From Mytilus trossulus (taxonomy: Eukaryota), in the NCBI RefSeq assembly GCF_036588685.1, contig NC_086386.1:23870001-23934000 (forward strand): DNA of 64,000 nucleotides. Direction: 5' to 3'. The notes below the pieces were generated by a model. It made no database searches. It saw only the letters and a program-made list of their open reading frames with translations, and was not told the origin of the DNA. The position numbers were made by a program, and so were the translations under genes. Every line of letters begins with the position of its first letter. The stretch's first letter is position 1. Positions 12,242-61,060 of the stretch are shown here, one piece after another.

Positions 12242-12344
12242 TATTTCTAATATTTATTGGGAATCAGTTAAAGAAATTTAAAGGTGGACTCGATCTATAG
12301 TTAGCCCTAACACAACTGGTAGGCACATAGTTATCAAAATATAT

Positions 12345-15369: not shown

Positions 15370-17330
15370 ACCTGCATTTCCCCCTACATAAGTAGCAATG
15401 TACGAACTGCACCTGCATTCCCAAACGTATTCTCAGTAGTCAAGAGCATACAACAACTACTCAGACTTTTAAAAAAAGGTCACCGATGTCTGTGCAGAAG
15501 GTTGACATATTTGTTACGTTTGGAGGACGTGTTTTTCAACAGACTGTCGGCATCCCAATGGGAACAAACTGTGCCCCTCTACTTGCTGACTTGTTTCTTT
15601 ATTATTATGAGGCTGACTTCATGCAGAAACTTCTTAGAAAGAAAGATAAGAAGTTAGCAATATCCTTTAACTCTACTTTCCGCTATATAGATGACGTTCT
15701 TTCACTAAACAATTCAAAATTTGGTGACTATGTGGATCGCATCTATCCCATCGAATTGGAGATAAAGGATACTACAGATACAGTTAAGTCGGCTTCATAT
15801 CTTGACTTACATCTAGAAATTGACAATGAGGGTCGGTTGAAGACAAAACTTTACGACAAAAGAGATGATTTCAGCTTTCCAATTGTGAACTTTCCATTTC
15901 TAAGTAGCAACATTCCAGCAGCACCTGCATACGGGGTATATATCTCCCAATTGATACGATATTCCCGTGCTTGCATTTCCTATCATGATTTTCTTGATAG
16001 AGGGTTACTGCTCACAAGGAAGCTATTAAACCAAGAGTTCCAAATGGTGAAGTTGAAATCATCCCTTCGTAAATTTTACGGACGCCATCACGAGTTGGTT
16101 GACCGTTATGGAATAACCGTTTCACAAATGATATCGGATATGTTCCTTACGTCGTAACTACAATCCCCTTCCCTTTTATGAATTTGACCTACCGAATTAG
16201 ACTATTTACCGGATTTGTAATCACATAAGCAACACGACGGGTGCCGCATGTGGAGCCGGATCTGCTTACCCTTCCGGAGCACTTGAGATCACCCCTAGTT
16301 TTTGGTGGGGTTCGTGTTGTTTATTCTTTAGTTTTCTATGTTGTGTCATGTGTACTATTGTTTTTCTGTTTGTCTTTTTCAGTTTTAGCCATGGCGTTGT
16401 CAGTTTGTTTTAGATTTACGAGTTTGACTGTCCCTTTGGTGTCTTTCGTCCCTCTTTGACGAACCAGGAGTACTGTCAAAGAACGTCTCGTTCCTTATAT
16501 AAAAAAAAGGTTTATAGGAAGGTACCTAAACCTTGTTAATAAATATTCGGTATCAACTTCACAAATAAAACAAGATGTTCTTGCAATTTGGTTTTGGGAA
16601 CTGCTGTTGTTCATCATCATAAAAACGTGTTTTGATATTCTCTTTTTTGTCTTTGTGAATATAACTGTTTAGTCTGTTTCGGTGGTAACCATTTGACGTG
16701 GCTCTATATTTGCACATCCCGTTATTGTTCTTTGACAGTCTTTGTATTCCTTTCTTTAATGTTTGCTACTATGCTTTATATGTATGCCTTTTTTGTTTTG
16801 TGTTTCTTTCTTTCCATGTGACGTGGCTCTGTACATACGCATCCCGTCATTGTGTTATTGTGTTATCATAATTTCTTGTGTTTTAATGTTTTCGTTTTTG
16901 CTTTCTTTATATGCCTTTTTTATGTTCCTCTCTTACATATGACAGGTATCTGTATTTATACATTCTGTCATTGTGTTTACTTGCCATTAAGGTTAATGTT
17001 TGTTAATATATATATATTTTTTTAATTTTTGGGATAAAAACACATTGTTGTTTTTGTGTACACCTGTTGTTGATATTTACCTATTATGTCTGTCTGTTTT
17101 TTTCTCTGTTGACAATATGGAATTTTATGCAACTGTCATACAAGTGAGAGGTTTAGCTATCTATAAAACCAGGTTTAATCATCTATTTTCTACACAAGAA
17201 AATGCCTGTACCAAGTCAAATATTACAATTATTGTCTATTTGTTTGATGTTGTCCAGCATTTGATTTTGCTTCATTAAATACTTTCCTTTTCTTATTTTC
17301 CTGGGAGTTCATTCGTTTTTATTTTACTTT
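15370..17330 (+). mobile_element. Old degenerate Penelope-like copy hosting the young insertion
   Basis: FPYISSNVRTAPA before and LTNQEY...FIGRY..LVNKY after the young copy; T-rich 3' UTR. Confidence 0.65.
15507..16455 (+). mobile_element. Young 5'-truncated Penelope-like retroelement (RT C-half, thumb, 3' UTR)
   Basis: GIPMGTNCAP, FRYIDD, YLDL, LYDKRDDF and SNIP motifs, open to 16157; TTGAC on both flanks. Confidence 0.9.
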
Positions 17331-17648
17331 TTGAACACACATAACAGGCTGAGCCGATATTTAAGGGTGCCAGTTTACAAGGAAACAGTCACCGGTTTGG
17401 TAAAAACATTTTTTTTTTAAACAACAACAAAAATAAATAAAAAAGTACCTGTTTGATATCAATAATTTAATCCAGGCAGGATGTATCTGATAAACTTACT
17501 GCAGTTGCAATTAATTATTGAAAAACTGAAAATCCACAACTGTCCTAAGAGATGGCGACACATATGAGGATTCAATTCATATATTTCAGAAGTTACAAAT
17601 GAAACCGTAATAACTCAATACAACTTTTATTTTTTTAGGCTAGCTATA

Positions 17649-17666
17649 ATGGAGGATTGGAATAAG
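17649..17666 (+). CDS. Putative first coding exon (MEDWNK)
   Basis: ttttttag|GCTAGCTATA ATG GAG GAT TGG AAT AAG|gtaag; phase 0, matches the next exon. Confidence 0.6.
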
Positions 17667-20600: not shown

Positions 20601-23600
20601 CATTGTAATGTGGAAATAAAAACCTGCAAGGGTCAGTCATTGGATTTATAAAGTATTCTTATTTTTATTCTTATTCTTATGCTAATAACTTTAAGTTTAC
20701 AGGAGACGCTTCAGGCTGAATAAGTACATAATGAGTACATACCTAATAAAGAAGTACTTACCAGCTATCAAATGTACTTGCTTTGCTTTACTTACAGAAA
20801 CTTCTGAAGGCTGCTGAGGCTGGAGATATAAAAGACTTAAGATTATGTCTACAGAATCGTGCAGACATTAATTTTAAAGGTGTAAGTAAAAAGTCGCATT
20901 TAGAATAACTTTGATTAAATTCATTATGCAAAATTATTTTAACATGCGTCGTCGTAAGGTACTTTTACATGTACAATAAAAATCACAAAGCTAGAGTTTA
21001 CTCGTAAATAAACCAAATTGAAAGTAAACAACTATCTTTCCTTCTATATATTTAAAGGGATATGATTGTTTAACGGACAACACGTGGTCACGTTCTTTAT
21101 TTGGTAACGGGTATCCTCAAAATATGGGATAAGTTACCATAATAGGTTTCTATAACATGAGATAAGTAAAGAGTTACTTCCATGTTAGACAGAAAAAAAA
21201 CAAAATTCTGAATTGTTTCAACAGAATAAAATAGTAATGAACGATCGAAATAAATTCATAAAACGTTGTAATTTTTTTTCTGTATTGAAGACTTCATTAG
21301 TGTCATAGGCCTCTCGTCTTAATATCACACGTGTAGAAAGTCGGTAGTATAAATACGTTACATGGTGAGCTTATGAACTTATACAATATATATGGAGTCA
21401 GTAAATGACGTATCGGGATTCGAACTCCGCTCTTACCACACATAAAATTTATCGAATTATGTGACTAACACGCAATGTTACAAATAATATATATTTCATT
21501 TAATACTTGTGTGGAATAAACTAAGAAAGTCGTATGTGTACTTTGCGTTGTGTTTACTTTGCGTATATTAATTACAAATGGCGAAGCCCATAAAGGTATA
21601 AAGTAACGTTATAAACATAAGACTGAAATACGGGAAACATAACGTTAACGTTTGCATTATATTCTCAACATACTGGGGGCCGCAAAAGTATATCTTTGTA
21701 TACAATTCAAATATTTCTTTAAATGTCCATAATTGAAACGAAAAAAAAAAGATTTAAAATATGATGAGCAATTACAGTCTCCAACGATTTGAAAATCGGA
21801 CACAAAAATCAATGTCCTCTAAGAATTTGTCGAAAATTTAATGTTCTCCTTTGCACGCATTGCTGCCTTTCGCATAGGCAGTGTTCTTCTTGTATCGACT
21901 TCTTTCGTCTCATCTATTGTATTTGGTAGTTCATCTTCGTTGATCTCTAGCGGATAAAGTTTGACGATCGTACGTGAAGTTTGGCCACTGTTCGTTCTGA
22001 TTATCGCCGAACGCACTAAACCATCGTTACCAGTAACAACTTCCTCCACTACTGCTGTTTTCCATTTAATTCGCGGTTTATCGTCATGCACCTGAACTAC
22101 ATCTCCTACTTTAATGTTAATCCTATTGTCTCCAGTCTTTTTATGATATTTTCGAAGTGAGGTTAAGTACTCAAATTTCCAACGGTTCCAAAAATGTTCA
22201 ATAAGAGTAGATGATCTTTGAGCACGTTTGAAATATCTGAAGCAGTCAATGTATATGTTTCGTTAATATTGTCCATTTCGGTACGTGGATACGGTAATGT
22301 TGTAACTCGGCGTCCATACAACAGGTGCGCGGGTGTTAACGGCTCACTATCGATAATGTCTGTAGAAACATATGTTAGTGGTCGATCGTTCAGAATTTTT
22401 CTCTATTTCTGTGACAAATGTCTGTAACATATCCAAATTGATTCACGCACGTCCTGGTGTCTTTTTCAAATTTATTTTTGTAAGTGCAATTAATCTCTCC
22501 CACCACCCTCCGAACCAGGGTGCACGTTTCGGAATGAATCTCCATTCGACTCCAAAAGAAGATAAAGCTTCTTCAATTTTCTTTGACTCACATAGCCGTT
22601 TTACCTCCTGTGACGCTGATATAAAAGAAAGCGCATTGTCCGACATAACGATCTGCGGTAATGATTTCCTACTTGTGAATCGTCTAAATCCAAGTAAAAA
22701 AGATTCTTCGTTCATAGTTGGTATTATCTCCAAATGCACGGCTCTTGTCGACTATCACGTAAATAAACATATGTAAACTTTTTTCAATGTACCATCATTT
22801 TTCTTGACTTGAAGCGCTGCTGTAAAGTCTATATCTGTAAATGTGAAAGGCGGTGCTTTTTGAAGTCTTATGGCGGAGGGTCTGGTGCCCTGTACGGTTT
22901 TCCGTTGACCTTTTTGCAAGTTGTACATCTGTGAAGTAATTTTCAGGTGAATTGGCGCCAAGACGGTATCCAGAATGTTTGACGGATTTGTGTAACGGTG
23001 GCATTAACCCCAGAATGCATAACTAGTTCGTGTGAGTTCAACACTATAAGCTCTGATAATCGGTGATTTGCTGGTAAAATATAAGGATGTTTAGCTGATT
23101 CGGATATTGGCGCATTATGAATTCTACCTTTACATCTCATTAAATTGTTTTCATCTAAATATATTTGAAGTTGTAGAAGTCGTGGAAGTTTAGTTTTCTG
23201 CGCATTTTTTAATGTGAGTGCGCGTACTTCACCGGTGTATGCCGTCGCTTGGCAACATCGTATCCATAATATAGTTGATTGCTGTAATTCATCTGGTTGT
23301 ATTTCCCCAGTGTTTCTCATAGACTTATTTGTCTTACAATTTTGAATAAAACGTTTGACATAAGTTGTCACTCGCAAAAGCTTCTTGTAAGATCCATACC
23401 TGTAAGCATTTATAATTTTGTCAATTCCAAAATGAAGATTATCATTTTTGTCAGTGTTGCTTTCTTCTTCTAGTGTCTCCTCATTATCGTCTGCTAATAC
23501 GGATAAAGCTGTGTTAATAGCTATAGGTAAATGTGATTCCAAGTTGGCTGAATTTTGAATTAGGCAAGTCGGTCCTGTTTTCCATAATACGCTCTCCATA

Positions 23601-32600: not shown

Positions 32601-35600
32601 CTCATCAAATACTTTTTAAAGAAGATTAGTTAATAATATTAAAATGTTTTGTCAAATGTATATAAATGTAAGTGAAAAATCATTAACATTTATGCACACG
32701 CATGTGGAAGTTTATCTCAAGAACGTTTGCAATCTCAAGTAACGATAACTCTGCATGAGTGATTAAACATTTTTTGTGGGAAAATACGAAGACCTACTCA
32801 AATCCATTCTATTAGAAAAATCAAATTATTACAGAAGAGTGACGTGTTGAGAATAAAATGATATACAAATGCCTGAAAATTATTTGTACATGTACCTGTA
32901 ATATACAAGTATTAATATAATATATAACAATAAACAAAGTATACTGATTTGTATCACTACAATATAACAGTCATTACTGTTAGGATGAATTCCCTGTCAT
33001 TAATTTATCCTCCACGCACGAACTTGTCCCAGAATAAAAATATATCTGTACATTAACCTCCCTTTCAGATATAGAGATGTGATTTTTTTCTGAAACAAGT
33101 GTTTGTCGGACCATCTGCAAGAACTTGCGGTCATCCGACGTTCATTAATTCCGTACTTTGATTATCAATTGAATTCTCTGATCTACCTCACACTAATTCA
33201 GATTTTACTTTTTTGAATATCTGTTTCACATGTGACGACGGATATTTTCATTTGTCGTAACCATATTACCGTCATCTTTTAATCGAATGTGAACTACCAA
33301 ATGAAAGCAAATCACTGGGTTAGTACTTTCACTAATAACACGACGGCTGCCTAACATTGAGCAGAATCTTTCAAATTTTGGAGCTTCTGAGAACACCCCG
33401 ATGGATTTTTATTACCCAGTCATAGCGATCTATTGAATCAGCCAATTGAAATTAAAAGTTTGAGGGGCATATTGTTTCACCCCCATCCGCTCGTCCGTCC
33501 TATTATGAGTATATAGTTATTCCGCATAACTTATCCTACAGTTTGAACCTTAGAAAGATTTCTCTTTACTGTCTGTTTAATAATATATTAAAGGTGTGCA
33601 TGTGATCAGGGGTTTTAGTTATATTAATTTATGCTCTTTTGGGAGGTAATTGAACTCATTTTTTGGGGTATAATCAGTTCAATGTTATAGTTATTTTTAA
33701 AATTACACTTTGCATCTGCAGGGGCAGCAATTGTGTCTCCCAGGCACAATCATATCCTCGGTAAAGTCCTACGTTGACTTTGTGATAATACAGTTACTTT
33801 AGAGTGGAGTGCGGGGAGTATCACTTTGTTTACATTTTGTTCGCATGTTGTGCTGTAACATTACTACAACAGTCTGATGTTGAGTTAATATTTAGCGCTC
33901 ACATACATGTTAAACTCCTCCACGTGCACCTTCCTTATGAACCTGCCCCAAATGAGGAGCATGAAGTTCAACTGTTGTCGTTGATCATGTGTGTCCTATT
34001 TTTTTTGTAGATTGTTTTTTTATTAATTAGACCGTTAGTTTTTTTGTTTGATTTTAAATTTTCACATGGCTTTATGTCATGTTTGTAGCTGACTATACGA
34101 GGTGTTGAATGCTATACGGTTGCCTATACATGTTTTCGTACATCCACTGCATTTAAACTCATGTGGTGGCAATTGGCAATCACACCACATCTAACTTTAT
34201 TTCAACTTCTATGTTGCGTTTTTTATACTGTAGTATTGTTTATCTCAGTTTGTACGCATTCATTGTCAGACATTTGGGATTGTTTTGATGTTAATTTTTG
34301 TTAAATATTAATCAGTTTATCAGAAAAGTTTCTATGGCATTTGTTTAATTCCAGGATTTCGGATTTACAGCAGTAATGTTGGCTGCAAGGAAAGGCCACC
34401 TGGATGTATCTCTATTGCTCATTGACAGCAGATGTAAAAAAGATACCACAGATGTATGTTATCTATACGTCATATCACATTATTTGTATGCTGAGTTCAC
34501 ATGTACTTAGAATTCAATTCGCATTAACCAATTTGGATTAGTTTAATTTGCATATGAAACGTACTTCTTTCATCAATTCTAATCCGAATTGCAATGCGAG
34601 TCAAATTCGCTAAACTGTCCAAATGACGTTTACTTTTAATTCGTGTTAACAAAATAGAATTGAGAAAGGAAATGAGGAATGTGTCAAAGCGACAACAACC
34701 CGACCATAGAGCAGACAACAGGCGAAGTTCACCAATGGGTCTTCAATGTAGCGAAAACGTCCACACCCGGAGGCGTCCCTCGGCTGTATTTCTAATGCAA
34801 ATTGGTTAATTCGAATTAGCCAAAAAAAGATTGTGTGAACGCGATTGGCAAATTCGATTCTCATTCGATTCGAGTTCAATTCGAATTAAATGTGCGTATG
34901 AACAAGGCATTGATTATTCTAATGCAATTTGGATGTAACATTTTTTTTCATTGGCTAACAGTTGCCGTCAAATCCACAGTTGACCAGGCGTAACTAAGGA
35001 GAGACCCGCCATTTTGAATTGATGAATCAACAAATGTTCGATTACATCTATATAATCAAAAATAAAACAACACCTACCTCGAATTTGACGTTTTAATGTA
35101 ATTTTATACAAATTTGAAGCGTACAGGTAACGAAATAACCTCCAGTTTGTAAGTTTTCGTTTGTATGACGTCACGTTTAGCCATGACGTCTTTGTGCCAA
35201 AATTATTCATGAAGTTTCGCGGATATTTTTTTTTTTTACAAATTTAGACATTTTTTCAAGTTTTATCGTATTTTTTTCTTTTTGTAATGCATTAGAATCG
35301 GAATAACAGTACTGTAGTTTAAGAGTTGCCACCGTCAATTTTGATTTGACGGTCGCAAATCTCCGTTTTACTGTCTCCGCACCGCGTCGCCAGTAAAACT
35401 GCATTTGCGACCGTCAAATCTACAATTGACGGTGGCAACTCTTCAACTTCAGTACGGTTATTCCTTAAATATAAAATCATGTTGACAGGTTGAAACCACA
35501 AAATATATGTTAGAATTATATAAAGTAGTGGGTTCGGAGTTTACTCATGTTGAATTCAATCACAATTTGTTTTCTTTCTGTATTCTGAATCTGCACTTAA

Positions 35601-47600: not shown

Positions 47601-50600
47601 CTACCCTTCCGGAGCACCTGAGATCATCCTTAGTTTTTGGTGGGGTTCGTGCTGCTTATTCTTTAGTTTTCTATGTTGTGTCATGTGTACTAATGTTTGT
47701 CTGTTTGTCTTTTTGATTTTTACCCATGGCGCGTTGTCAGTTTATTTTCGATTGATGGCTGTCCCGGTGGTAGCTTTCTTATCTATTTTATTTTTCTTTT
47801 GTTATTATTTTATTATGTAGTAAAATGAAATTAAAAACATGAAATCGATGATACATTACCTTAGAAAATGAAGTTCGGAAAATTGAGAAATTCCACAGTA
47901 ACCATTGTGACAGTCAGGTCAATAGACATCGTTTTTTATAAAAGAACAATCCATTTTTTACGTTACAAATTTAAGTTATTCTTTTTAGTTGTGTTTTATT
48001 ATCCAATATTTAGTTATGATGAATAAAGAAATCGTTAAATCATTATTTGTGGAAATTTCAACTTTAATGATCAAAACTAAAAGATTATATTTATTCCGTT
48101 TTACGATTAAGAACGGTGAACAATTTTCAAAGATTAGATACAGTATTTTTCAATTGGTTCAAGTTCAATTTGTTTGATGCAATTCTAAATAATTTATTAA
48201 AACAAAATTGCAGTGAAGCTTCAAATATTTTTATATTAACTTATGACTGTTATCAAAATGATTTGAATTGTTCTATTTTGATTTTAAGAATTAATGCTGA
48301 AGGTAAATCCTAATTGGTACACATCGACGCAACAATTAATATGATGTGTTACTTTTGGTTATGTTATATGAAAGATCTGTTTCTTTACTGTGGATTCATT
48401 TTTTTTCGTGGATACCAATTTTCGTGGGTTGCTGAAAACTTGTCTTTTCGTGGATGTTTGATTTCGTTGTTTTGTCAAAGTCTGCACACACCCTAATACA
48501 AAATTTGTTATTTGTTGAACATTTAAATTCGTGGTTCACCCGAACCCACGAAAACCACGATAATTGGTATCCAACGAATAAAAATGAATTCACAGTAATT
48601 CCGTTATTTTATAGGAATTAATGTCACAATCACAATCCATTTTGACCAAACTAAGCCAGTTAAATAGAGGGGATTTTAAGGCTCTTATCGCTCTGGGAAC
48701 ATTTGCTTCCTACGAAAATAGGGTGTACTTGGCTGGACCTTGTAATATTGGAAAATCGTCCCTAGCAAGTATTCTAATTGGCGAGGAAATTCCGAAGACA
48801 TGGTGTTCAACTGATGGACTGATTATTCATTTTGGAAGAAATGGCATCGATTTACAACGCCGAAAAATGATTCCTTTGAAAAAAGGTAAATGAGACATAT
48901 TATTTTATAAGGATGATTATTTTCAGCTAGAAAATATGGATTGACAGACCTAGATGATTAACAATATTGATTTATTCAGCTTTTTTCAAGTTGCTTATCT
49001 GGATCAAGCATGACAAATGTACAGTTTAAGTGTTCCACAAAATGTTTGAATTAAAGTTAATGTTGCAAACTTTTGTTACTATCTAGGTATTCGTTTTACT
49101 CGTTGATTCCGGATTATCAATATGGCATTTATAATGAAAGGTTTAGTTTCTAGTTTGCATAGACAGCGTTATATAATTCAAATTAGTTTAACCTTAAAAG
49201 AACCGTACTACTGTTTTCCTAAAGAGTTGCATGTTTATACTACAATCCACATACGTTATAGTTTATCCATCATTTGTCTTCCAATATTCATGGTTTTTAA
49301 AGATGAATCAGAATAAGGGCTTCAACACAGAATTCTTTATATTTCTAATAATCCTTGGCTTACATTTTTTTTACTATATTAGGTAGGGGTGATATTCTAA
49401 CAAAACTTCTACTTGGAAATCCCGCATTAAAAGATCATCAAAAGAAGAGACTTCCTGGTGCATATCCGATAGAACAGCATGTTGATGAACATAAAGGGGA
49501 CGGCTCAGGTAATTCGATATCAAATCTTGTATCTAAAATATTTAGAACGAGGACTGATAAACCTCCACCAAAACAGCAACGAGAAAAACCAAATGCAACA
49601 AAAACAAGTCGGGAGACTTTTAAAAGCTCTCACGATCAACCAATTCATACAGCTAATTCCATTCAAGATGACCTGCTGGTAAGGAGTAAGAATGGAAATT
49701 ATCGTATGAATATAGCACCTTCTGATTTGGTCGATTTTGGTGGACAAAAATCATTTGATATGACTCATCAGTTATTTATCCAGCACAGGGGGACATTCAT
49801 TCTGATGTTTGATGGACGTTTTGGCCTTCATAGTGAATTAGAAGAATATCCACAAGGAGATGTCACAGCAGCATGTAAGATACTTCAATTGTACCATTGA
49901 GTTCATATACCCTAGTGATCATAACGAGTTAGTTGAATGCATATATTGAATATACAAATGATGCTCACATTTCTATTCAAAAATCAATGTCTCACTTTTA
50001 AGGTTTAAAGCAATAAATATAAATCGTTTTTGAGATACGGCGCGACATGTGAAAAAACTCCTCCCAGTTATAGTCCCGTAACCCAAAACTTATTATATTT
50101 TCACCAAAAGAAATACGTTTGACCATCATAAGAAGCAGCTATATCAAGATTCATGAAATGTTTTGAAATGGTTCTCAAGTTACAGTGCGACATGTGGACG
50201 CCAGACAGACAGACGGACAGACAGGCGAAAAAATGGGCGCCGGACATTTGTATAACAAAACACGTCTAGTCAATATTTGTTGAAGCGTATAAAAGGTCAA
50301 TGAATATCTAATGTTGAAGACGCAGTTTCCTGATTGTTGGTCCTATATTAGAACAAAACTAATCAAATATTTTATTCAAATAACACCTCAGGCCAAACCT
50401 ACATAATTGTTTACCTTGGTGCGCTATCAGTAATCTATTGGTAGTGTACACGTGATTGCCTCTGTTGAAGGAAGTCATTTTTTTTATCAAATGACACTCA
50501 TGTCATGAGTTATCGCGAGCTCCAAATCTTCCCGTAATCTGGAATAGTGTTGAAGCAAGTTCAACATAAGAACAAATTGCAAATGTCACTTGAAATGGGC

Positions 50601-53600
50601 TAAACTCAAAAGATAACACAAAGCATGAAAATAATTAATAAAAAGACACTAAATACTCATAGCTTTTCCAAAGCTCATTTAAAATTTAAGATTTAAGATT
50701 TAAGATTTACAGTGGGTTTGAGAGTTACATACAAAAAAACATGCAAACATTAGGTTTATTTAGATGGTCAGTCATAAATGTCATGATGAACACAAGTGTG
50801 ATTGGCCATTTGCTCCCATAAACTCGAAATTTTGAACCTAGAAAAATATTAAACATTGAAGTCATTCATCACTCATCATGCATCTTCTTTATAATATATA
50901 AAAACTATTGAATAAGCAACACGAACCCCACTAAAACCTATGGGGTGATCTTAGGTAATCCAACAAGTTTAGCAGATCCTGTTCCAAATGTGGCACCCGT
51001 CGTGTTGCTTATGTCATAAAAAATCCAGTAAATAGTCTTATTCGGAAGGTTTCATTTTATTTGGTTTTAAATAACAACTGATCATATTTTGTTAAGATTT
51101 AATTACTTTCAACTTTGTTGAATAAGGGAAACAAATTCAGATAACCTCACGTTTACCACCATAAAGTTTGATTCCTTAAACAACTTTCGCAAAATATTTT
51201 TGTACATTTTTAGTATGTTGTTCATAGATACTGTCTCGTTTTCTAAGAAAAAAAAAGGGTGTTGCTATTAGTTGCATAATGTTAACCAGATTGACAAGCC
51301 TTATGTGTTCTAAAACTCTTTATCTTTCAAGTATTGACTCATTATATTTAACAAAAAGTATGTACACAACGCAGTGAACAAACTCACATTTGAATTATAA
51401 ACCAATTATTTAGAGAACAATTGAAGGTCTTTCCACCTCGATGATAAGAATGAAATTTAAAAAAAGATGTTAGAAAAGGTCACTCCTTGTTGATGTAATT
51501 TGGTACCTCAAACTGATATAAAAAAAGAAGATTAATAGGAATATGCAGAAGACTTAATTAACAAGAAAGAATTTAAAGCAAAGGTCAAAATCTAGAATGT
51601 CAAGCTGACCTTTGACCTTGACCTTTATTTCAAGGTCATAGGTTAGTGATCTAAAATTAAAAGACCCTAGGTAAATCACTTGTATGGATGTGGAGAAATA
51701 CCGATTTCAAATACAAAAGGGGAGATATTCCCATAAGGGTTAACCAAAACACTTCGAATGAAGTAGGTTAAAGTTGCACCTTATTGTAAACAGTAATTTG
51801 GCAAACACGTCATATCATTAACTGTAACAGTTTCTTTTGAATAACGATAACAAGCAAAATTAAAATGTATTACATGACCTTGACCTTTGACCTTGACCTA
51901 AAGGTCATGGGACAGTGAACTCAAATTGGAAGGTCCGAGGTCAATCACTTGTATGGTTGTGGAGGATTAACGATTTCAAATACATAAGGGGAGAAAACTC
52001 CTATAAGGAGATATACAAAACACTTCGACTGAATAGGTTGAAGGTGCGCCTGATTGCAAACAGTAGTTTGGCAAACATATCATATTATTTACTGTAAAAG
52101 TTTCTTTTGAATAACGATAACAAGCAAAAATCAAAATTTATAACATGACCTTGACCTTTGACCTTGACCTCAATTTCCGTCAAATGGACCAAGGACTTCA
52201 TATCAAAAGACTGTAGGCCTGTACGACTTATATTGTTTGAATTTATCCAACATATCGTCTATCCAAAATTTTCAAAGGGAAACAACTCCCAAAAAGATGT
52301 CTTCCGATCACTCCAGTCGAAATAAAACAAATCATTCTTAAGAATAGACGAACAATTTGGTGAGAACAGTTTGTAAAAATCTTTTACGGTTTTAGATATA
52401 TAGCGATAACAAGAAAAAGAGGACGCGGGGAGATAACTCCTATAAGAATAATTGTTCGGTCACACAGGGTGAGTTTTAAAATCCTCATTACTGTACAACA
52501 ACATTGGCCAAACATCCATTCGATTTGTTGTAAAACAAAAAAGCATCTCAGACGGCAGAAGATAAAAAAAAACTAATCAGAAGTGGAAAGACCTTATTAT
52601 GGTCATTTGCCCTTTTATTAGCACCCACGCAACATGGGGAAATAACATATGCAACGTTTGAAACATTGGAACTCTGTTACTGATCTTTACAGTATCTTTT
52701 TTATCGAGAAGTTGATCGATTTAAAACAAATCAAATACCATACTTTAATTTTATATTTATAAGAACTAGATATTTTTTTGCAGCCATTCTTTTGCATTGG
52801 ATAAACTCTGTATTGACTTACTGTAACAAAAGCGAGGACAAAATGCCAAGAATTGTGTTTGCTGCAACCCATAGCGATAAATTCTCTGAGGTATGTTTGA
52901 ATCGATCATTGATGTCAGTAATTGCTGGCAAGTTTTTTCACAACTACAACTACAAAACTACAAACACAAGTAGAGATAACATGGTTATATAGATCGGTGT
53001 TTCTCTTAATGTCATTCGCCCTGGGCTTTTATTTAGCCATTTGTTTTCCCGCGTAACGCGTTGTAGTAGACATGGAAAAAACGGCCGCCCGTCCAACCAT
53101 CCGGTCTTGTTACTCTTTTCGCAGGTATAAAACCTGTTTTATAAGTTACTTTAGTAATATATCTGTTACAATGGTGGGCAACTGACCATCTTTATATGAG
53201 TTTTTCTCTTTGCAAATATTAAATACGCGAACTATATCTATAATAATGCTTGCGGTACCTTTTAAAGTAAAAAAAATAAAACAAATTCAGATGGGTGTTT
53301 CAAAAATAAATTTGGACATTAAAAAAAAACAACCGGAGATTCACAGTTGACATGATTGTTGTGAACGATTATAGGTAGGATTAAATACTTAGTATTGTGA
53401 ATTTTTTGCATTGCTATGAGTAACAATTTATGACAAAGACCCATCGAAACAACATCTGATACAAACATTTAATAATACTTTTAAATATTTTGATGACATA
53501 TTGGCTCTCAATAATTACGACTTCAGTATGTATACTAAACAAATTTATCCTGTTGAACTTACTTTAAATAAAGCTAATACTAACAATGACCACTGCTCTT

Positions 53601-56600
53601 TCCTCGATTATGATATCTTTATCATAAACGGAAAGCTTAATACAAAAATTAATGATAAAAGACATGATTTTTCATTTCCTATCGTTAATTGTCCATTTTT
53701 AGATGGTGACGTTCCCTTGACACCATGATCTTATGGTGTTTTCATATGTCAACTTGTACGATTCGCTCGTTTTAGATTTAAACGAGATAAATTTATGTAT
53801 TACTGAAAAATTATAACCCCAGGGTTTTCGATTTCACAAACTAGTCAACACATTTACTAAATTTTATCATCGGTAAAAGGACATAATTCTTAAATATAGC
53901 TCAACATACAGAATTCTTATACGTTTAGGTATTTCACATCCAATCACAAAAATGTCAGTATAAACCTCAGAAACTAACAAAACTTTGATATAACCTTATT
54001 TAGAAGTGATATAGTTACGATACTGTTGTTAGGTCATTAAAATTGCATATTTGGCTTTAATATTGATTCACTTATAGGGTAATTGCATCGGAACTAAATA
54101 CATTTATTCATGTTATTTAATACACCAGTTGTTGGCATGCCACGGGTTATGTTCGTCTCATATATGTTATGATCGATGGTATAAAACTAAACGACTAACG
54201 GGAGGGATTGTGCCTGCTATTCATATGATGAGGACATTGTCTTTCAATCAGTTTAATTGAAGTCTGGAGCGGGCATGTCAGTTAACTGCTAATAATCTGT
54301 TGTTATTTATGTTTAGTTGTCATTTTGTTTATTTTCTGTTGTTTGATCGTCTGACATCAAACTCGGACTTCTCTTAAACTGTATTTTACTGTGCGTATTA
54401 TTATGCGTTTACATTTCTACATAGGCAAGAGATATATGGGAGGGGGTGATATCTCATATACATGTTTAACCACGCTGCATTTTTGCGCCTGTCCCAGGTC
54501 AGGAGAAACTAGCCTTTGTTAGTTTTGTATTATTTTTAATTTTAGTTTCTTGTGTATAAGTTGGAGTTTACTATGGCGTACATTAATACTAAACTAGAAT
54601 ATATATATTTGTTTTTAGGCCAGCTAAAGAACGCCTCCGGGTGCGGGAATTTCTCACAGCATTGAAAACCTATTGGTGACTTTCTGCTGTTGTCTGTTCT
54701 TTGGTCGAGTTGTTGTCTCTTTGACACATTCCCCATTTCTATTTTCAATTTAATTAATTAATATGGTCATCAAATATTTGCTTTAAACCATCGTCATGAT
54801 GACTTAAACAATCATCCCAACTTTTTATAGCTTTATATATTATGGACTTTGTTGTGATTAAACATATTTTTAATAAGTTGAAAAATATATATATTTCTTA
54901 CATTGGTTTTTCATAAAAAATGAGGTAATTTCTGTTTGTATAATTGACAGGATGAAAAAAAGAAATTAACCATGACATTACAAAAGGAGTTGACACAAAT
55001 GTTTTCCTCACACAAACTTCAAGAGCATATACTCTGCGACAAAGTCTTTTTCATCGACGCAAGAGATGAGGAAGATATAGAAATTGTTCGGTTAAAGGAC
55101 ACATTAGTTGATATCGCCTTCCAGCAGTCAACATGGGGTCAACAAATGCCAATTGTTTGGGTGCCACTTGATTTACAAATATCAGATATGAGAGCAGATG
55201 GAGTAAAGTTGATTACAAAAGAGGAACTTCTGGAAATTAACCAGTCCAATAAAGAATTCGCTCTAAGTGAAAGAAGAGTTGAAGATTTTTTACTTGTTCA
55301 TCACTCAATAGGAAAGCTATTGTACTTTGATCAACCTGCTTTAAGAGATTTCGTTGTTATTCAGCCTTCAGCAATGGTAAATATCCTTAGAGCTTTCATT
55401 ACAGACATAATGTTTTGGCCAGAAGAAGGACCCATTCGAGACATACTGGAGAGCTTATCATCCACTGGAGTTCTAAAGAAGACCGACCTTTTTACTCTGT
55501 GGTCACAACCAGCTTTCAAAGATATTTTGACTGATGACAGAACAAAGGAATATGTAGTTCAGGTTCTTCTTCATCTTGACATCCTTGTTGAACCTAAACG
55601 CTACACAGAGAAGGATACAGCTGCAGATTTATTTCTGGTTCCTTGCATCGTGAAATCTAAAATTCCACCAAAAATGAAGAAAAATGCTACAGATGACAGA
55701 ACAATATGCATAGCTTATCATCTGAAGGAGACCGTGGTTCCATCTGCTTTGTCGTTCAAGCTCATAGGGGCTGCAATAAGCATCTGGCCATTGAAACTAG
55801 TAGACACTCGTTTTTGTGTCTATTTTCAAGCTGCAATACTGGATGCTGATAACAAAAATGAACTTCAAATTTCTGTGGATGACCAAAGAATCGTTGTTTA
55901 TCTAATAAATGAGGTGTCAAAGCAACATATCTCACCAGATCTAGCGACAACAGTTCAGGAATGCTTGACTCTGGCACTTGGACGAATTCTTGAATTTTAT
56001 GGTCGTTGTTTTGGTAAAGAAAGTCACCAAGTGATATCCGATTTATTTGAAATAGAAGTTGGAGAGATATGCAATGGAGAAACTTGTTTAATTCCTTTGT
56101 CGAAAGTGAAAAAGCAAACACATTGGAAATGCAAGAATGGAAATCAACATGAAGCAAAATATCCTCTGACTTGGGTGTTTGATAAGGTAAGTTATTTTTC
56201 TTATAATATGTTTTACTCTTTAAGCATGCATTTAATTGATGTTTATTAGAAGACTAATGGAATCTTCCATACTCTGAAAAACAATTTGTTGAATATACTT
56301 TTGAAAAAAATAAAGATGATAGATAGACGAAGGCTTGTTTATAGTAAAAGTTCCATAGAAAATGCAGTTAGGTTTTCATGAATATTTCTAAAGTTTTATA
56401 ACAAAACTCATGCAATGTCTATACACAAATTGATGATGTAATTACACAGTCCTGTTTTACACTCTGATAAATAACATTAACACAACATAAAATTGAAATG
56501 GGAAAAGAATGTTCGATTTAGGACATGTCAGTTAAGATAATAATTTTTGTTTTTATCTGTTTGTCTTTTTATTTGTGACGTTGTCCGTAAATTATCGATC

Positions 56601-59600
56601 TACAAGTTTGGGTGTCCCTGTTGTATCGTTCGTCCCTCTTTCAAATATGAAATCAACAAATAATCCTTTCTTGTCCGAAATGCAATCAACTGTATGGCTA
56701 AAGAAAGAAAATAAAAACATACACAAGTAGAAAGGCAAGGACTAAGTATAGTAACATGAAACACTAAATAAAACATTTGTTTGCAGACTCTAAGCTTTTT
56801 AATGTTTATTTTTCAGAATAAAGAGCATTGTGATCCAAACTGTAAAGGTAATTGAATAACTATAATTGATTTAAAGAGGGAGAAGTATCACTATGGGCAA
56901 AAAAGTCATAAGACACACAAAAAGGCAATACTGATCAACATGGCCCAAGAAAAAAGTCAATATTTAGCATTTTTAAGAAATGTATATTTAGTAACATGTA
57001 CTGGTCCTCAAAAACTTCGGCTGAATTCAGGTGATATGAAATGTTAAAGCCGTTCCTAACGCAGTAATCATAAGCATGTCATTTGACATATGAATAAATG
57101 AAAATTAAACCAAACAGTGGTTCATAAAGTGTGATTAGTTTTCAAATCCGGGATCACCAATGTGACTCAAAATTTAATATTGGATTTAAATCAGAAGCCA
57201 TTATATAAACCATCAAACTGAAGACAACTTATATGGTCATTTGACGACCCTAAATATAAACATAAACATGAATATGAATAGACGGATAAAGTCATTCAGT
57301 TTGAGGATTAGAAGACAAAGAAAGAGGCAACACTGGTTCATTTGTTTAAATGTCGACATTCTATCTTTTTAATATCTATTAGAAATCTCCTGTTTACAAA
57401 ACTTTGTTTTTTTTCGAAAAACTAAGGATTTTCTTATCCCAGGCAAAGATTACCTAAGCCGTATTTGTCACACCTTTTTGGAATTTGGATCCTCAATGCT
57501 CTTCAACTTTGTACTTAGTTGGCTTTATAAATATTTTGATATGAGCGTCGCTGATGAGTCTTATGTAGACGAAACGCGCGTCTGTCGTACTAAATTATCA
57601 TCCTGGTATCTTTGATAACTATTTGATAACTGAATATTTTAGCATAGACTAATTATTTGGCAGTAAGATAAAGGTTGCATGCATACATGTTAAAATTAGG
57701 TAGAACTATTGACCTCATGGCAAAAATTACATTTGTGACCTTTTGTATCTTATTTTGACAAAACCGAACAAAAAAATCTGTTAATAGTTTTCTCATCATA
57801 CTTATTTATCTCAGACTATAAGCATCAGGCAGTATTTAGTATCACTGGGCGTTTAACTTGTCATTGTCAACCAATTATAATTAATTTGAGTGGTTGTGCT
57901 AAAAGTGAGCTAGTAAATTAATAACATTGCAGAAAAGAGCTGCAAGACTAATGTCAGATGCTGACCCACTTCCATCTTCAGCACCACTCTTTAAACAGCT
58001 TAAGAGGATGTCATTAAAGAACAGAATCGCATATTAGTACATTTAATCTGTTGATGCAGAAATGCATTAAAAAAGATAATTTTCATACACTTACTCAAAC
58101 TTTATTCATTGTTATTGTTGAGGTACTTTGAATTATGCCACTACTATTATTATTATTATTGTATAGCAATATAATTTTTCCCACAGAACGTAACCAAAAG
58201 TTAGCGTGCAATAAATTCTAATATTGCACTAGTGCAATAAGTCTTCAATATTCATGACGTCATCAACGACAAAATCTTATCTAAAACCATTTTTTACTTT
58301 CAAATATTATATTGCTATACAATAAAAGGGTTATTGCATGAATATTGGGGAATATTGTCCCTCGTAGAACATATATTGCACTCGCAAGCTCGTGCAATAT
58401 AAAATTCTACTTGGGACAATATTCCCCAATNNNNNNNNNNNNNNNNNNNNNNNNNNNNNNNNNNNNNNNNNNNNNNNNNNNNNNNNNNNNNNNNNNNNNN
58501 NNNNNNNNNNNNNNNNNNNNNNNNNNNNNNNNNNNNNNNNNNNNNNNNNNNNNNNNNNNNNNNNNNNNNNNNNNNNNNNNNNNNNNNNNNNNNNNNNNNN
58601 NATTTTTTTTATCCTTTTGTGAAAGATAGAAACTTTATATGCAAATATCAGCAGCAAAAATACAACTTCACATAAGCCAACATTAACAAAATCGTCAGTC
58701 GAGCTCTTCAAGGAAAATTTTGCGTATCTTGTACATTTCTTTATAATATTATCGTCAAACCTATAAAAGATGAATAGAAAATTTGAATAGAAAAAATGAT
58801 CAGCAGGACAATATTTACAATTTAGTCACCTTTTTCCAAAATCATTAGAACACTATTGATATGAGTGATTTCCCTTGTTTGTGTTTAGAAGAAAATAAAA
58901 ACTTGTAAACCAAAAACTTTTGAGGAGTACAAGATCATTAAAAAAAACATTTCTCATGAATTCTATATTTTTGACAAAATTAGAGAGGGTCTATTATTGA
59001 AGCCCATAAACATAGGACTGGTGTCAAACTACAAATCAAACTAGCCTTTACGAGATACATACATTCAGAAAGCTAAATAGATAAATTCAGTATACTATAA
59101 TAATTTTCAATATTTTGATCTAAGAAATGGCAGACCTACAATAATGTTCATCTAATACTATTTGGATGCATACAATTAAAACATTAAGAAAGCTAGAAAG
59201 ATTATCTCAACAATTTTTTTCCGTGAGGTGAGGTTGACATCTGTCATAATAACGTAATTTACATTCAAGGTCTTGAAAGAGAAACAAAAACGCTGCTTTT
59301 GAAACCAATTGATCAGCATTTTGTTCATCTTACCAAAAAACTTGGTATAGCTGAATTTTACAAGTTCTTCATTTATCTTGGTATGACAAAGGCTGATTAC
59401 GATAACTTAAATTATCGTTATTTCTCAAATCCTATGGACATGATGCTGATGGGGATGTTTCAGTGGAGAGATAAAACAGAAAGTGATCAATCACCTGCTA
59501 CATTTGGGAAATTGCTGAAAGCATTGAAGGCTATTGATAGTCACCACTACCTATGCCAGGTTAGTTTTGTAAAGTGTGTTAGCTTTCTGTGTTACAAAGA

Positions 59601-61060
59601 AAGAAATCTATAATGTTTTCATTATGTAAAATAGTATGATCCATCATAACACCATATAATTAAGTTACCTGTACTAAGCTATGATCATTTAGTTTTAATA
59701 CAGTCGTTTTCCATTTGTTCCGTGAATGGAGCGTTTTACAATGTCCGCTTAGGGGCATTATGTTCTTTGGTCTGTCCGTCTGTTCGTTCGTCCGTCCGTC
59801 TGTCCCGCTCCAGGTCAATGTTTTGGTGACGGCATTTTTTTATGAAGTTGAAGTCCAATGAACATGACATTTAGAATACATGTTTCCTATGATATGAACT
59901 TTCTACATTTAATTCCAAATTTAGAGTTTTGATTCCTATTCAACGTTCCACTGAACATAGATAATTATAGTGCTAGTTAGGCATTCGTGTTCTATGAACA
60001 CATTTTGGTTTTGTCAGAATTTATGGACCTATCCTTCTTTCAATTTACCCTAGAGTTCTATATCTTCACTTGACTTAAACAACTCAGCTTATTTTTCAAA
60101 TTGATTGGTTACCTTGACAGGAAATGATTATCCAAGTTAAAATATGGACATTTCAGTGAATGTAACATAATTTTTATTATAGCCTCACAGAAGATGTATA
60201 CTGACTTTAATAATCACGTTAAATTTCCTAAATTACCACTAAACGGTAGATAAAATGAAAATGTATACAATGTCACTACTGTATTGTTGGTTTTTGTTCA
60301 ATATATATTTTTACCAGAATTATGCTATGTATAAATAAATTTGATGTTCATTTTTCATTTCTGTTATTTTATATTTAACATATTTCAGATACACAGAGAG
60401 GATCATAGTTTAGTTGGTATGTCTATTGTTATAGAATCGTTGCTGTTTCAATCATATTTGTTTGTAACTTCACAGCTTGTTTTATGCCATTTCCTTGAAC
60501 CAATCTTACAATACATCCAAAGTGAGAATGGCAAAGGGGAATATGTCAGAGACAACACGCCAGCAGTATGCCGCTGTATACATGTTCTTGCAATCTTTTA
60601 TAATATTTGTGTTAGATGTATTTTATGGTTGAGCTATTAAAGTAGAAGATCAATGATGTTTTTTTACCTGTTTTCATATTTTGTTTCCACTATAAAAAAA
60701 CACAAATAAAGTTAATATCATTTATTGATTATGATTTCCTTTCATGTATTTACAGAACAAGTTCACAGTCACCTGCAAGTTGTTCCGTCAGATGAAGTAA
60801 TTAATACTTTGACCGAAGAGAAGCTGATAGGTGATTGTGTTGTTCACTTAGGAGTTGAATTAGGTCTTACCATTGGTGATATAAAGGAGACTATGCACAA
60901 CTTTCCGAGCGATTTAAATGGTCGAATACATGATCTTTTAATCAAATGGAAAAAAACAAACAAGGTGACACCAACAATATACCGGCTTATGGTAGCTTTA
61001 AAACGTGTTGAAGCGGCTGAAGGACTAGCTTTCCTGAAGAAAACATATGGTGTCGAATAA
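17649..61060 (+). CDS. Spliced gene: ankyrin repeats-Roc-COR-death-death (kinase-less ROCO, DAPK-like architecture)
   Basis: Exons 17649-17666, 20798-20881, 34355-34453, 35666-35764, 36903-37010, 37833-37910, [44942-44978, 47865-47917 tentative], 48615-48885, 49383-49874, 52784-52890, 54951-56186, 56817-56847, 59270-59559, 60389-60416, 60756-61060. All introns are GT-AG with matching phases; total 3246 nt (3336 with tentative exons), stop-free. Confidence 0.85.
18950..20680 (+). mobile_element. Degenerate 5'-truncated non-LTR retrotransposon (RTE-X-like)
   Basis: Frameshifted GVIQGD.SP, FADD, YKYL, KPIILYGS, ELGRFP, IEDEFHVLINC; (ATTCTT)n tail at 20656-20680. Clade assignment is tentative. 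Confidence 0.75.
20798..20881 (+). CDS. Ankyrin exon 1 (KLLKAAEAGDIKDLRLCLQNRADINFKG)
   Basis: ttacag|...|gtaagt; N-capping ankyrin consensus LLxAAxxG...ADIN. Confidence 0.85.
21183..21670 (-). repeat. Probable 3' LTR of the BEL/Pao element
   Basis: Minus strand gcggcccccagta|TGTTG...AACA; no partner LTR seen, so the outer boundary is inferred. Confidence 0.5.
21183..26532 (-). mobile_element. Decayed BEL/Pao LTR retrotransposon (gag-PR-RT-RH-IN), 5' end missing
   Basis: Cys/His knuckles, LFDEGAQRSF, EKAFL/YVDN, LHVFVDA..AYGAV, SDNA, APWFGGWWERL, C-terminal GNDGLVR; many stops and frameshifts. Confidence 0.95.
26533..27635 (-). mobile_element. About 850-bp non-coding retroposon with degenerate hammerhead, copy A, with a tandemly duplicated 240-bp 5' unit
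   Basis: Near-identical to 28475-29318; 27171-27400 is repeated at about 27411-27635. Confidence 0.8.
27801..28086 (+). mobile_element. Retrozyme-like monomer
   Basis: Interspersed repeat (also 57350-57622, 40170-40385, 61410-61500, 8122-8149) carrying a hammerhead; interrupts a 58-bp minisatellite. Confidence 0.8.
28009..28052 (+). ncRNA. Minimal type I hammerhead ribozyme
   Basis: gcgtca CTGATGA gtct-tatgt-agat GAAA c-gcgc-gTC^ tggcgt; predicted cleavage after 28046; G-U pair at the base of stem II. Confidence 0.85.
28475..29318 (-). mobile_element. About 850-bp non-coding retroposon with degenerate hammerhead, copy B
   Basis: Direct repeat of copy A; a 3' fragment also lies at 45195-45381 (+). 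Confidence 0.8.
29536..32143 (+). mobile_element. 5'-truncated Tx1/L1-clade LINE, degenerate, with poly-A and 15-bp TSD
   Basis: KSPG.NGLT.EFYK.FW, DQTGY, GIRQG.PLS, SQLADDTT, GGLRMID, Cys/His tail; TSD gatattacacgaaat at 29521-29535 and 32144-32158. Confidence 0.9.
32144..32335. repeat. About 21-bp degenerate minisatellite (ggttttgtcattactcaatat)
   Basis: Visible periodicity; continues left of the LINE at about 29490-29535. Confidence 0.7.
34355..34453 (+). CDS. Ankyrin exon 2 (DFGFTAVMLAARKGHLDVSLLLIDSRCKKDTTD)
   Basis: 99 nt, phase 0/0, ttccag|...|gtatgt; GxTAxxLAAxxGH motif. Confidence 0.9.
34914..35464 (+). mobile_element. Non-autonomous element with subTIR pair and long terminal hairpin
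   Basis: attctaatgca / tgcattagaat at 34916 and 35288, then palindrome 35300-35464. Confidence 0.65.
35666..35764 (+). CDS. Ankyrin exon 3 (DDGWTAFMWAAFGGYLDISRLLLDRGCRPDNTD)
   Basis: 99 nt, phase 0/0, ttccag|...|gtacgt. Confidence 0.9.
36903..37010 (+). CDS. Ankyrin exon 4 (RDGRTALHLAALNGHLQVARYLVEKAGISPFVLTHK)
   Basis: 108 nt, phase 0/0, tatag|...|gtaata; canonical TALHLAA. Confidence 0.9.
37833..37910 (+). CDS. Ankyrin exon 5, C-cap (GETPFDLAAAKVQYLESTREVSTYLQ)
   Basis: 78 nt, phase 0/0, tttcag|...|gtacac; GxTPxDLA. Confidence 0.88.
38017..38180. repeat. About 22-bp tandem repeat (aaattttgaaaatatcaaagtgta)
   Basis: About 7 visible copies. Confidence 0.85.
38510..39073. mobile_element. 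Kolobok-like MITE
   Basis: Imperfect TIR aggagtag..gtaag..ttttgg / ccaaaa..cttac..ctactcct; TTAA on the right, TAAA on the left. Confidence 0.6.
39108..39317. mobile_element. Tc1/mariner-type MITE (same family as 48388-48595)
   Basis: Ends aatgaattcacag; repeated ccacgaaa motifs. Confidence 0.65.
40494..44866. mobile_element. Non-autonomous EnSpm/CMC-like DNA transposon (4.37 kb)
   Basis: TIR cccagtaaaca / tgtttactggg, 2-bp TSD GT, ACGT-rich subterminal repeats at both ends; no transposase ORF. Confidence 0.8.
43630..43774. mobile_element. hAT5-like MITE with 5-bp TSD
   Basis: TIR caggggcggatcca / tggatccgcgcctg; TSD TACAG. Confidence 0.8.
44942..44978 (+). CDS. Tentative linker micro-exon (KHHEKWTVSTKS)
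   Basis: tcaag|37 nt|gtagaa; phase 0/1, keeps frame only together with 47865-47917. Confidence 0.4.
46980..47775 (+). mobile_element. Degenerate copy of the Penelope-like element at 15507-16455
   Basis: Collinear nucleotide similarity with frameshifts; further fragments near 50915-51050 (-), 33225-33400 and 56540-56640. Confidence 0.88.
47865..47917 (+). CDS. Tentative linker micro-exon (ENEVRKIEKFHSNHCDSQ)
   Basis: ccttag|53 nt|gtcaat; phase 1/0; 37+53=90 nt is in frame. Confidence 0.4.
48388..48595. mobile_element. Tc1/mariner-type MITE, TA TSD
   Basis: ta|ctgtggattcatt...aatgaattcacag|ta. Confidence 0.8.
48615..48885 (+). CDS. Roc GTPase exon: P-loop and switch I
   Basis: GPCNIGKSS (G1) and STDG (G2); tatag|...G|gtaaat. 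Confidence 0.93.
49383..49874 (+). CDS. Roc exon: long insert and G3 (DFGGQ...THQLF)
   Basis: Roc-specific DFGGQKSFDMTHQLF; phases 1/1. Confidence 0.93.
51560..52590 (-). mobile_element. HINE/Helitron-like element with about 270-bp tandem core repeats
   Basis: tgacctttgaccttgacc near 51608, 51880 and 52150, with collinear units. Confidence 0.6.
52784..52890 (+). CDS. Roc exon with G4 (HWINSV...VFAATHSDK)
   Basis: ttgcag|...|gtatgt; Roc G4-type THxD; phases 1/0. Confidence 0.92.
53400..54750 (+). mobile_element. Degenerate Penelope-like element, second family
   Basis: FKYFDDI, IYPVEL, FLD, DKRHDFSFPIVN.PFLDG; its 3'-end sequence recurs at 34628-34790 (-) and 35985-36245 (+). Confidence 0.82.
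54951..56186 (+). CDS. Roc end and COR domain exon
   Basis: WGQQMPIVWVPL, HSIGKLLYF, VVIQP and FLVPC match COR-type motifs; gacag|...|gtaagt. Confidence 0.93.
56817..56847 (+). CDS. Micro-exon (NKEHCDPNCK)
   Basis: tttcag|31 nt|gtaatt; needed to bridge phase 0 to phase 1. Confidence 0.8.
57350..57622 (+). mobile_element. Retrozyme-like monomer, second copy
   Basis: Collinear with 27810-28086. Confidence 0.8.
57545..57588 (+). ncRNA. Minimal type I hammerhead ribozyme
   Basis: gcgtcg CTGATGA gtct-tatgt-agac GAAA c-gcgc-gTC^ tgtcgt; predicted cleavage after 57582; one mismatch in stem I. Confidence 0.87.
58156..58430 (+). mobile_element. subTIR plus long-hairpin element, running into gap 58431-58601
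   Basis: ttattgtatagcaata / tattgctatacaataa, then palindrome 58344-58430. Confidence 0.65.
59270..59559 (+). CDS. Death domain 1 exon
   Basis: FIYLGMT...MFQWRDK...ATFGKLLKALKAID fits the death-fold pattern; phases 1/0. Confidence 0.87.
59715..60010 (+). mobile_element. Short HINE-like element
   Basis: (GTCC/GTCT)n near the 5' end and a short 3' palindrome gtgttc-tat-gaacac. Confidence 0.5.
60389..60416 (+). CDS. Micro-exon (IHREDHSLV)
   Basis: tttcag|28 nt|gtatgt; needed to bridge phase 0 to phase 1. Confidence 0.8.
60756..61060 (+). CDS. Death domain 2, terminal exon
   Basis: LGVELGL...LLIKWKK...PTIYRLMVALKRV; TAA stop overlaps an AATAAA. Confidence 0.9.

Follow-up and report, generated by a model that had tools for sequence, protein, structure and literature searches.

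A kinase-less ANK-Roc-COR-DD-DD gene of the mussel Mytilus trossulus: a Roco of a Mytilus-rich family and a candidate GTP-gated immune or cell-death sensor

What might a mussel do with a gene that joins ankyrin repeats to a Roc GTPase domain, a COR domain and two death domains (DDs), and in which no kinase can be found? The question is raised by a locus of Mytilus trossulus, within a window of 64,000 nucleotides of animal DNA with 33% GC (contig NC_086386.1 of assembly GCF_036588685.1, positions 23,870,001 to 23,934,000 of the forward strand; the coordinates used here count from the first letter of this window). An initial annotation, made from the letters alone, had proposed a receptor of the order ANK-Roc-COR-DD-DD, switched by GTP and perhaps part of a lineage-expanded family. 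The mussel gene is real and intact, and it is an ordinary member within its own family.

The gene comprises 14 coding exons on the plus strand (17649-61060), which together encode 1081 aa in 3246 nt, with the terminal TAA at 61060 as the single stop. All 13 introns are GT-AG, the exon phases are compatible along the whole chain, and the frame runs uninterrupted across 43 kb. The stop-free, phase-consistent chain of the initial annotation was thereby reproduced, including its start at 17649 and its end at 61060. A tblastn search of the window with 44 relatives matched 12 of the 14 exons, the unmatched two being those of 18 and 28 nt; the same search gave no match in the window beyond the modelled exons, and no additional, concealed ankyrin exons. 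The ankyrin exons are all of phase 0-0, and exons 12 and 13 make up a symmetric cassette (phase 1-1, 106 codons). The features of the gene are as follows.

17649..17666, + strand: exon 1, ATG and six codons; probably not the first transcribed exon
20798..20881, + strand: exon 2, N-cap ankyrin repeat, phase 0-0 (Ank_4, E 0.048)
34355..34453, + strand: exon 3, single ankyrin repeat, phase 0-0 (Pfam Ank, E 3e-4)
35666..35764, + strand: exon 4, single ankyrin repeat, phase 0-0 (Pfam Ank, E 7e-7)
36903..37010, + strand: exon 5, single ankyrin repeat, phase 0-0 (Pfam Ank, E 3.5e-9)
37833..37910, + strand: exon 6, partial C-cap repeat and a helix toward Roc, phase 0-0 (tblastn match to relative P0008, E 0.002)
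48615..48885, + strand: exon 7, N-terminal half of Roc, with the P-loop (G1) at 48735-48758 and the G2 threonine
49383..49874, + strand: exon 8, variable insert predicted to be disordered (about aa 268-345), then G3 (Roc, E 0.0012)
52784..52890, + strand: exon 9, Roc helix and G4
54951..56186, + strand: exon 10, end of Roc (G5), COR-A (E 2.5e-7) and a COR-B-like region
56070..56150, + strand: predicted zinc site 1, at the end of COR (Cys826, Cys831, Cys846, His852)
56817..56847, + strand: exon 11, mini-exon of the linker; its Cys869 and Cys873 supply half of predicted zinc site 2
59270..59559, + strand: exon 12, DD1, with terminal His967 and Cys970, the other half of predicted zinc site 2
60389..60416, + strand: exon 13, linker between DD1 and DD2
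60756..61060, + strand: exon 14, DD2 and the stop (Pfam Death, E 3.4e-5)

RNA contigs agree with this model at four of its splice sites within the region 36880-56870, which holds exons 5 to 11 and leaves exons 1-4 and 12-14 outside; they came from 4 of 24 runs, each either recorded as RNA or guessed to be so. Contigs that match the window at about 95-98% identity end within 2 bases of the acceptors 48615, 49383 and 54951 and of the donor 56186 (break points 48613, 49381, 54949 and 56184) and continue into a further 60 to 1194 unplaced letters, as would be expected from spliced transcripts of the window gene or of a very close allele. No exon-exon joint, ankyrin-to-Roc included, was found among the joints listed, a list filled by intronic repeats. 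The link from ankyrins to Roc is supported by phase, by a contig extending 104 letters past the exon 7 acceptor (break 48613), and by database models, 43 of which have the same full ANK-Roc-COR-DD-DD architecture.

Does the gene begin where the model begins, and could a kinase lie in front of it? An exon upstream of the ATG exon probably exists, because the ATG lies behind an acceptor-like AG (17637-17638) and the frame is open over the three codons in front of it. Met1 itself is very likely the true protein start, because 9 of 57 ankyrin-bearing relatives begin alike: from residue 1 they show the same short pattern, followed by the N-cap repeat. A Pfam scan of 150 of the 153 upstream plus-strand stop-free segments of at least 30 aa in the window (a list that leaves out segments containing N) found no kinase. 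Among 209 aligned rows bearing the Roc-COR core, which were gathered with local profiles and include fragments, isoforms and amphioxus rows, none has an HRD-type kinase motif. Both results bear out the proposal that the gene has no kinase.

At the N-terminus, exons 3, 4 and 5 each encode one canonical ankyrin repeat; exon 6 has no Ank match and was recognized as a C-cap by eye. Three canonical repeats and two caps make the 'about 5' repeats first described a fair count. Judged by pairwise identity, the ankyrins are diverging faster than the GTPase core: among six close ankyrin-bearing members the last ankyrins share 37-83%, versus 85-100% for G1-G2 and 78-96% for G3-COR, the ankyrin range including P0009, whose model looks truncated or mis-predicted.

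The centre of the protein had been described as a Roc domain with intact G1-G4 followed by COR, and this description holds. The Roc motifs, as located in the translation and by alignment with the family, are G1 at aa 203-210 (with Lys209), G2 at Thr228, G3 at aa 370-374, G4 at aa 445-448 and a G5-like strand at aa 485-489. Neither the Pfam match to Roc (E 0.0012) nor that to COR-A (E 2.5e-7) attains its curated cut-off; in relatives Roc reaches up to 1.9e-10. The insert between G2 and G3 is variable, at about 80-110 aa, and disorder is predicted for it in relative P0012. The AlphaFold model of P0012, which is 70% identical, matches the Roc-COR units of LRRK2, LRRK1 and the C. tepidum Roco (Foldseek E 3.5e-14 to 8e-14), and COR directly follows Roc. 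By both structural criteria of the class, Roc motifs and an adjoining COR, sequence and model identify the protein as a Roco. From its motifs, GTP binding and hydrolysis are predicted; the P-loop is intact in 145 of the 146 rows with a G1 match, a count biased by the choice of rows through a G1 profile match.

At the C-terminus, the second of the two tandem DDs proposed earlier is recognized directly, as DD2 matches Pfam Death above the curated cut-off. DD1 gives no match to Pfam Death and is recognized by its fold. Its predicted structure has six helices (pLDDT 88.7) and is closest to the DD of RAIDD (Z 13.2, root-mean-square deviation 1.8 over 82 aa; TM 0.78), the top eight rows of a VIA-align comparison are all DDs, and the family profile matches the DDs of RAIDD, FADD, PIDD and RIPK1. 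On this modelled fold, DD1 is a member of the death domain superfamily; a fold held in common with RAIDD would not by itself identify the signalling partner. Eight conserved Cys and His residues, all found in the window gene, form two predicted zinc sites. Over 149 rows, site 1 is conserved at Cys826 (100%), Cys831 (100%), Cys846 (99%) and His852 (80%), and site 2 at Cys869 (100%), Cys873 (98%), His967 (99%) and Cys970 (99%). If it binds metal as its residues suggest, site 2 would clasp both ends of DD1.

How far does this architecture extend? The initial homolog search returned 44 matches, 42 of them from Mytilus, and the closest proteins are all Mytilus. A profile search gave 443 proteins at E<=1e-10, a count drawn from 8000 scored candidates over several species and assemblies rather than from one genome; of the 120 matches listed, 119 are named as Mytilus proteins, from five species. 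A broader search mostly returned unrelated ankyrin proteins, and the ten Roc-COR matches looked up were all from Mytilus; bivalves other than Mytilus are poorly sampled in these data. Clusters of look-alikes in molluscs, sponges and chordates (Atlas) serve as leads only. In M. galloprovincialis, COR and Roc have 273 and 226 entries, both enriched among dispensable genes (false discovery rate p 2.6e-5 and 4.4e-5; PMC7653742 Table S52), and dispensable mussel genes have been tied to immunity and apoptosis (PMC7653742); this and the other papers identified by PMC number are drawn on for their pertinent passages. These figures fit the family-expansion proposal rather than a single-copy housekeeping gene.

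Of the core-bearing rows, 149 finish in DD1-DD2 and 44, the window gene among them, are ANK-Roc-COR-DD-DD. The relatives P0012 (labelled 'RIPK4', M. edulis), P0013, P0015 (LOC143054953) and P0008 (LOC134699896) are 64-71% identical to the window gene over most of their length. Such Mytilus relatives have the ANK-Roc-COR core and usually both DDs, many lack the first exons, none is identical to the window gene (best COR identity 85%), and they stand in public databases as uncharacterised or misnamed. A FastTree core tree, built from the 178 rows whose species is labelled and whose core spans 380-620 aa, nests the window gene in a Mytilus subclade with support 1.0. The Mytilus node itself has a support of 0.37, owing to a long Pecten branch, and the core tree does not settle monophyly against other molluscs. 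Because the Mytilus rows fall into several deep subfamilies, each multi-species and most with ankyrin-bearing members, the ANK-Roc-COR-DD-DD layout is likely ancestral to the mussel family.

The ends of the protein vary among relatives. DD2 is followed in some by CARD (P0005, P0016) or HEPN_DZIP3 (P0004, P0007), and in some mussel members the core is preceded by a DD pair, HEPN, Ig, nSTAND3, Macro or modules that look Hsp70-like by eye; single fusion cases may be annotation chimeras. The form DD-DD-Roc-COR-DD-DD occurs in P0017 and P0245, from two species, and its N-terminal pair may derive from a neighbouring tandem gene. The N-termini read by eye as Hsp70-like belong to P0020, P0022, P0023 and P0024, from three species, and have no such Pfam match at E 0.001. 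Two Roc-COR units per chain were seen in P0043 (Pecten) and P0262 (M. edulis).

Within the family, the core and the DDs appear to have separate histories. Over 171 pairs, the Spearman correlation of COR with DD1 identity is 0.17, and that of DD1 with DD2 is 0.75; correlations with Roc segments were set aside, as P0001 and P0010 misalign there. For example, P0013 and P0002 share 86% of COR and 57% of DD1, and P0012 and P0002 share 78% of COR and 90% of DD1. Approximately unbiased (AU) tests on quick trees of 20 rows rejected the COR clade on DD data (p-AU 0.006) and the DD1 clade on COR data (p-AU 0.02), and the conflicting COR and DD groups recur in separate assemblies (P0010, P0013, P0015). 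The simplest reading, which these conflicts suggest, is exchange of DD cassettes between close paralogs; chimeric gene models and rate shifts are the alternatives.

Among characterised proteins, DAPK1 shares the order ANK, Roc, COR, DD. It has a calmodulin-regulated N-terminal kinase and a single DD, whereas the mussel protein has no kinase that we could find, two DDs and about five repeats, and is multi-copy. The ankyrin repeats of DAPK1 number eight. The mussel protein lacks the kinase and the single DD of DAPK1 orthologs and is set apart from them by domain content; no true DAPK1 was identified among the matches listed in the homolog searches. LRRK1, LRRK2 and MFHAS1 place leucine-rich repeats (LRRs) before Roc, and the LRRKs add a C-terminal kinase; in contrast, the mussel protein has only ankyrins there and no kinase in the exon scan. 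With animal NLRs it has in common a logic of sensor, nucleotide switch and death fold, from which an NLR-like mode of working may be inferred by analogy. NLR and other STAND proteins, however, use a NACHT or NB-ARC ATPase, whereas the mussel NTPase is the Roc GTPase and the domain order is opposite, as the initial annotation had observed in calling its sensor-switch-effector order the reverse of that of animal NLRs. To the PIDDosome the link is the fold of DD1, nearest to the RAIDD DD.

The domain layout put forward in that annotation thus stands, but the novelty of its design idea does not, the order being the standard one for Rocos and already proposed in print as immune or directed against invaders (PMC8195603, PMC11378527, PMC4104024). 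Prokaryotic AP-GTPase (Roc)-COR proteins were proposed to act against invaders (Kaur et al. 2021, PMC8195603). They likewise combine fast-evolving N-terminal repeats, a Roc-COR switch and a swappable C-terminal effector, but their sensors are LRRs, their effector types number at least 24 and their function is a predicted one. Brown-algal LRR-Roc-COR proteins (PMC11378527, PMC4104024) form an expanded family in which each exon encodes a single repeat and for which an immune role has been proposed; their sensors are LRRs, not ankyrins, and the pertinent passages of PMC11378527 mention no DD pair. The Rocos of Trichoplax are expanded too and carry CARD and death domains, with TPR rather than ankyrin sensors (PMC4104024), and Roc-COR with TIR or death domains occurs in Aplysia and sea anemones (PMC9334734, PMC5094078). 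The same domains in the same genus were counted by Gerdol et al. 2020 (PMC7653742), whose matching text and two supplementary files give domain counts without architecture, phylogeny or mechanism. The main texts of PMC10514466, PMC12373286 and PMC4346834 yielded no relevant Roc or Roco passage.

Amphioxus has proteins of the same layout. Its proteins P0044, P0217 and P0220 ('DAPK1-like') are kinase-less ANK-Roc-COR-DD, P0220 having two Death stretches, but they are only about 22-26% identical to the mussel protein. Because they group by themselves in the core tree, the amphioxus expansion is regarded as parallel. In precomputed Pfam annotation, Branchiostoma proteins P0221, P0224-P0227 and P0229-P0234 join Roc-COR with an OTU, DED, caspase, trypsin or GT4 glycosyltransferase domain, partners that echo the effector list of the bacterial AP-GTPase systems; CARD-bearing Roc-COR relatives are also present. 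A full-text literature search found no paper describing the mussel ANK-Roc-COR-DD-DD family, subscription works such as the Marin Roco surveys being outside its reach. The repeat-Roc-COR-effector immune concept is thus already in print and the mussel family itself scarcely described; the features added here are the two predicted zinc sites, the faster divergence of the ankyrins and the conflicting COR and DD trees.

What, then, would the protein do? We consider it somewhat probable that it is a GTP-gated intracellular immune, danger or cell-death sensor that nucleates DD assemblies, its Roc-COR gating exposure of the DD pair. All steps beyond the protein anatomy are conditional. The ankyrins, one per phase-0 exon and fast-diverging, would bind a protein either of a pathogen or of the host in a disturbed state. 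Binding would shift the nucleotide and oligomer state of Roc-COR, as has been proposed for LRRK2 and the C. tepidum Roco (for the LRRK2 model, see PMC6337361). The DD pair, with DD1 likely braced by its zinc clasp, would be released or clustered, and RAIDD-, FADD- or RIPK1-like adaptors could join the DD assembly that it nucleates, whose output would be caspase or NF-kB signalling. When paralogs swapped DD cassettes, the adaptor that a given sensor engages would change with them.

Several points weigh against this account. The function proposed for the mussel protein, like its ligand and its partner, is hypothetical. Expansion, presence/absence variation and fast-evolving repeats also arise by near-neutral birth-and-death, and ankyrin genes are generally enriched among mussel dispensable genes (PMC7653742). 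The dispensability evidence concerns Roc/COR genes as a class in M. galloprovincialis, not the window gene, and the faster divergence of the ankyrins is one of pairwise identity. Automated models in tandem clusters can be chimeric and so mimic both domain fusions and DD swaps; the qualifications already attached to the P-loop count, the ankyrin range and the AU tests belong here as well. Contig depth is low over the exons, and the contigs are uninformative on expression level, tissue and induction. Finally, the relative P0256, of a different subfamily and without ankyrins, has a truncated tyrosine-kinase-like domain at its N-terminus.

The domain order, that of DAPK1 minus the kinase, also invites a non-immune reading: a DAPK1- or LRRK-like scaffold for stress, cytoskeleton or membrane traffic, its kinase lost or never present, with kinases recruited in trans through the DDs. 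Roles in autophagy, vesicle traffic and wound closure are indeed on record for characterised animal Rocos (PMC4104024). Nonetheless, hundreds of Roc/COR entries in one genome, their enrichment among dispensable genes and their variable termini are unlike conserved low-copy regulators, and the lack of an HRD-type motif throughout the core-bearing rows also speaks against such a role, which we consider unlikely.

A GTP-regulated inhibitor or decoy is likewise rather unlikely. Here the tandem DDs would cap or sequester DD complexes, damping apoptosis or inflammation. Tandem death-fold pairs can cap, as in c-FLIP, a catalytically dead tandem-DED inhibitor; the window protein carries no enzymatic effector, and the DD pair is a constant feature of the family (149 of 209 rows). 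Hundreds of diverging ankyrin variants, however, would be less necessary to an inhibitor, and the CARD or HEPN_DZIP3 that follows DD2 in relatives suits an activating output.

The family might also be largely a product of neutral processes, its module being prone to duplication and multiplied in a genome rich in repeats, and most of its copies having little to do. This would suit introns packed with mobile-element remains, many partial database relatives and a mussel genome with massive presence/absence variation in general, but is improbable given a 14-exon frame intact over 43 kb, a P-loop kept in nearly every row with a G1 match, seven Cys/His residues conserved at 98-100% across subfamilies down to about 30% identity, RNA contigs that break at predicted splice sites, and subfamilies that hold members from several Mytilus species. 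The repeats and mobile elements of the window are listed below.

21822-26569, - strand: broken BEL/Pao long terminal repeat retrotransposon in many fragments, intron 2 (DUF1759, DUF1758, RVT_1, Peptidase_A17, Integrase_H2C2, DUF5641); a small inversion lies within it, around 25590-25820
29594-32058, + strand: degraded fragments of a reverse transcriptase like that of long interspersed nuclear elements, intron 2 (RVT_1 at 29594-29914 and 30185-30478)
15396-16154, 47104-47361 and 53420-53725, + strand: three related fragments resembling reverse transcriptase, of which the first is open over 253 aa (RVT_1, E 0.0009); by eye they resemble Penelope-like elements
1487-2018, - strand: two overlapping open reading frames in different frames, each with a PC4 (p15) single-stranded DNA-binding domain (E 3.7e-12 and 4.5e-8); an intronless tandem-PC4 gene split by a frameshift, probably part of a mobile element
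10392-13282: two tandem-repeat blocks with units of 161 bp and 126-135 bp, a CGT/TCG microsatellite before each
26533-27125 and 28475-29072: 600-bp direct repeat of 95% identity, intron 2, adjoining tandem units of 241 bp and 59 bp

The value of the finding lies in the family rather than in the single gene. How the nucleotide state of Roc-COR is converted to output is still debated for LRRK2, in which the kinase confounds the readout, and an immune role for repeat-Roc-COR-effector proteins is, for the bacterial and brown-algal cases as presented in the passages cited, a proposal. Because the output predicted for the compact ANK-Roc-COR-DD-DD protein is as simple as DD clustering, the Roc-COR question becomes testable in it. 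Tentatively, mussels, and in parallel amphioxus, may possess, in addition to NLRs, another large class of immune receptors that work inside the cell: hundreds of presence/absence-variable Roc-COR genes with exon-shuffled ankyrin sensors and zinc-braced, recombining tandem DD cassettes, forming a 'Roco-some' death or NF-kB platform upon nucleotide switching. If so, they would provide a kinase-free system in which to learn what Roc-COR switching does. A large family with presence/absence variation in a farmed animal would also supply natural variants for association with disease resistance, and would be a candidate basis of individual differences in that resistance among mussels.

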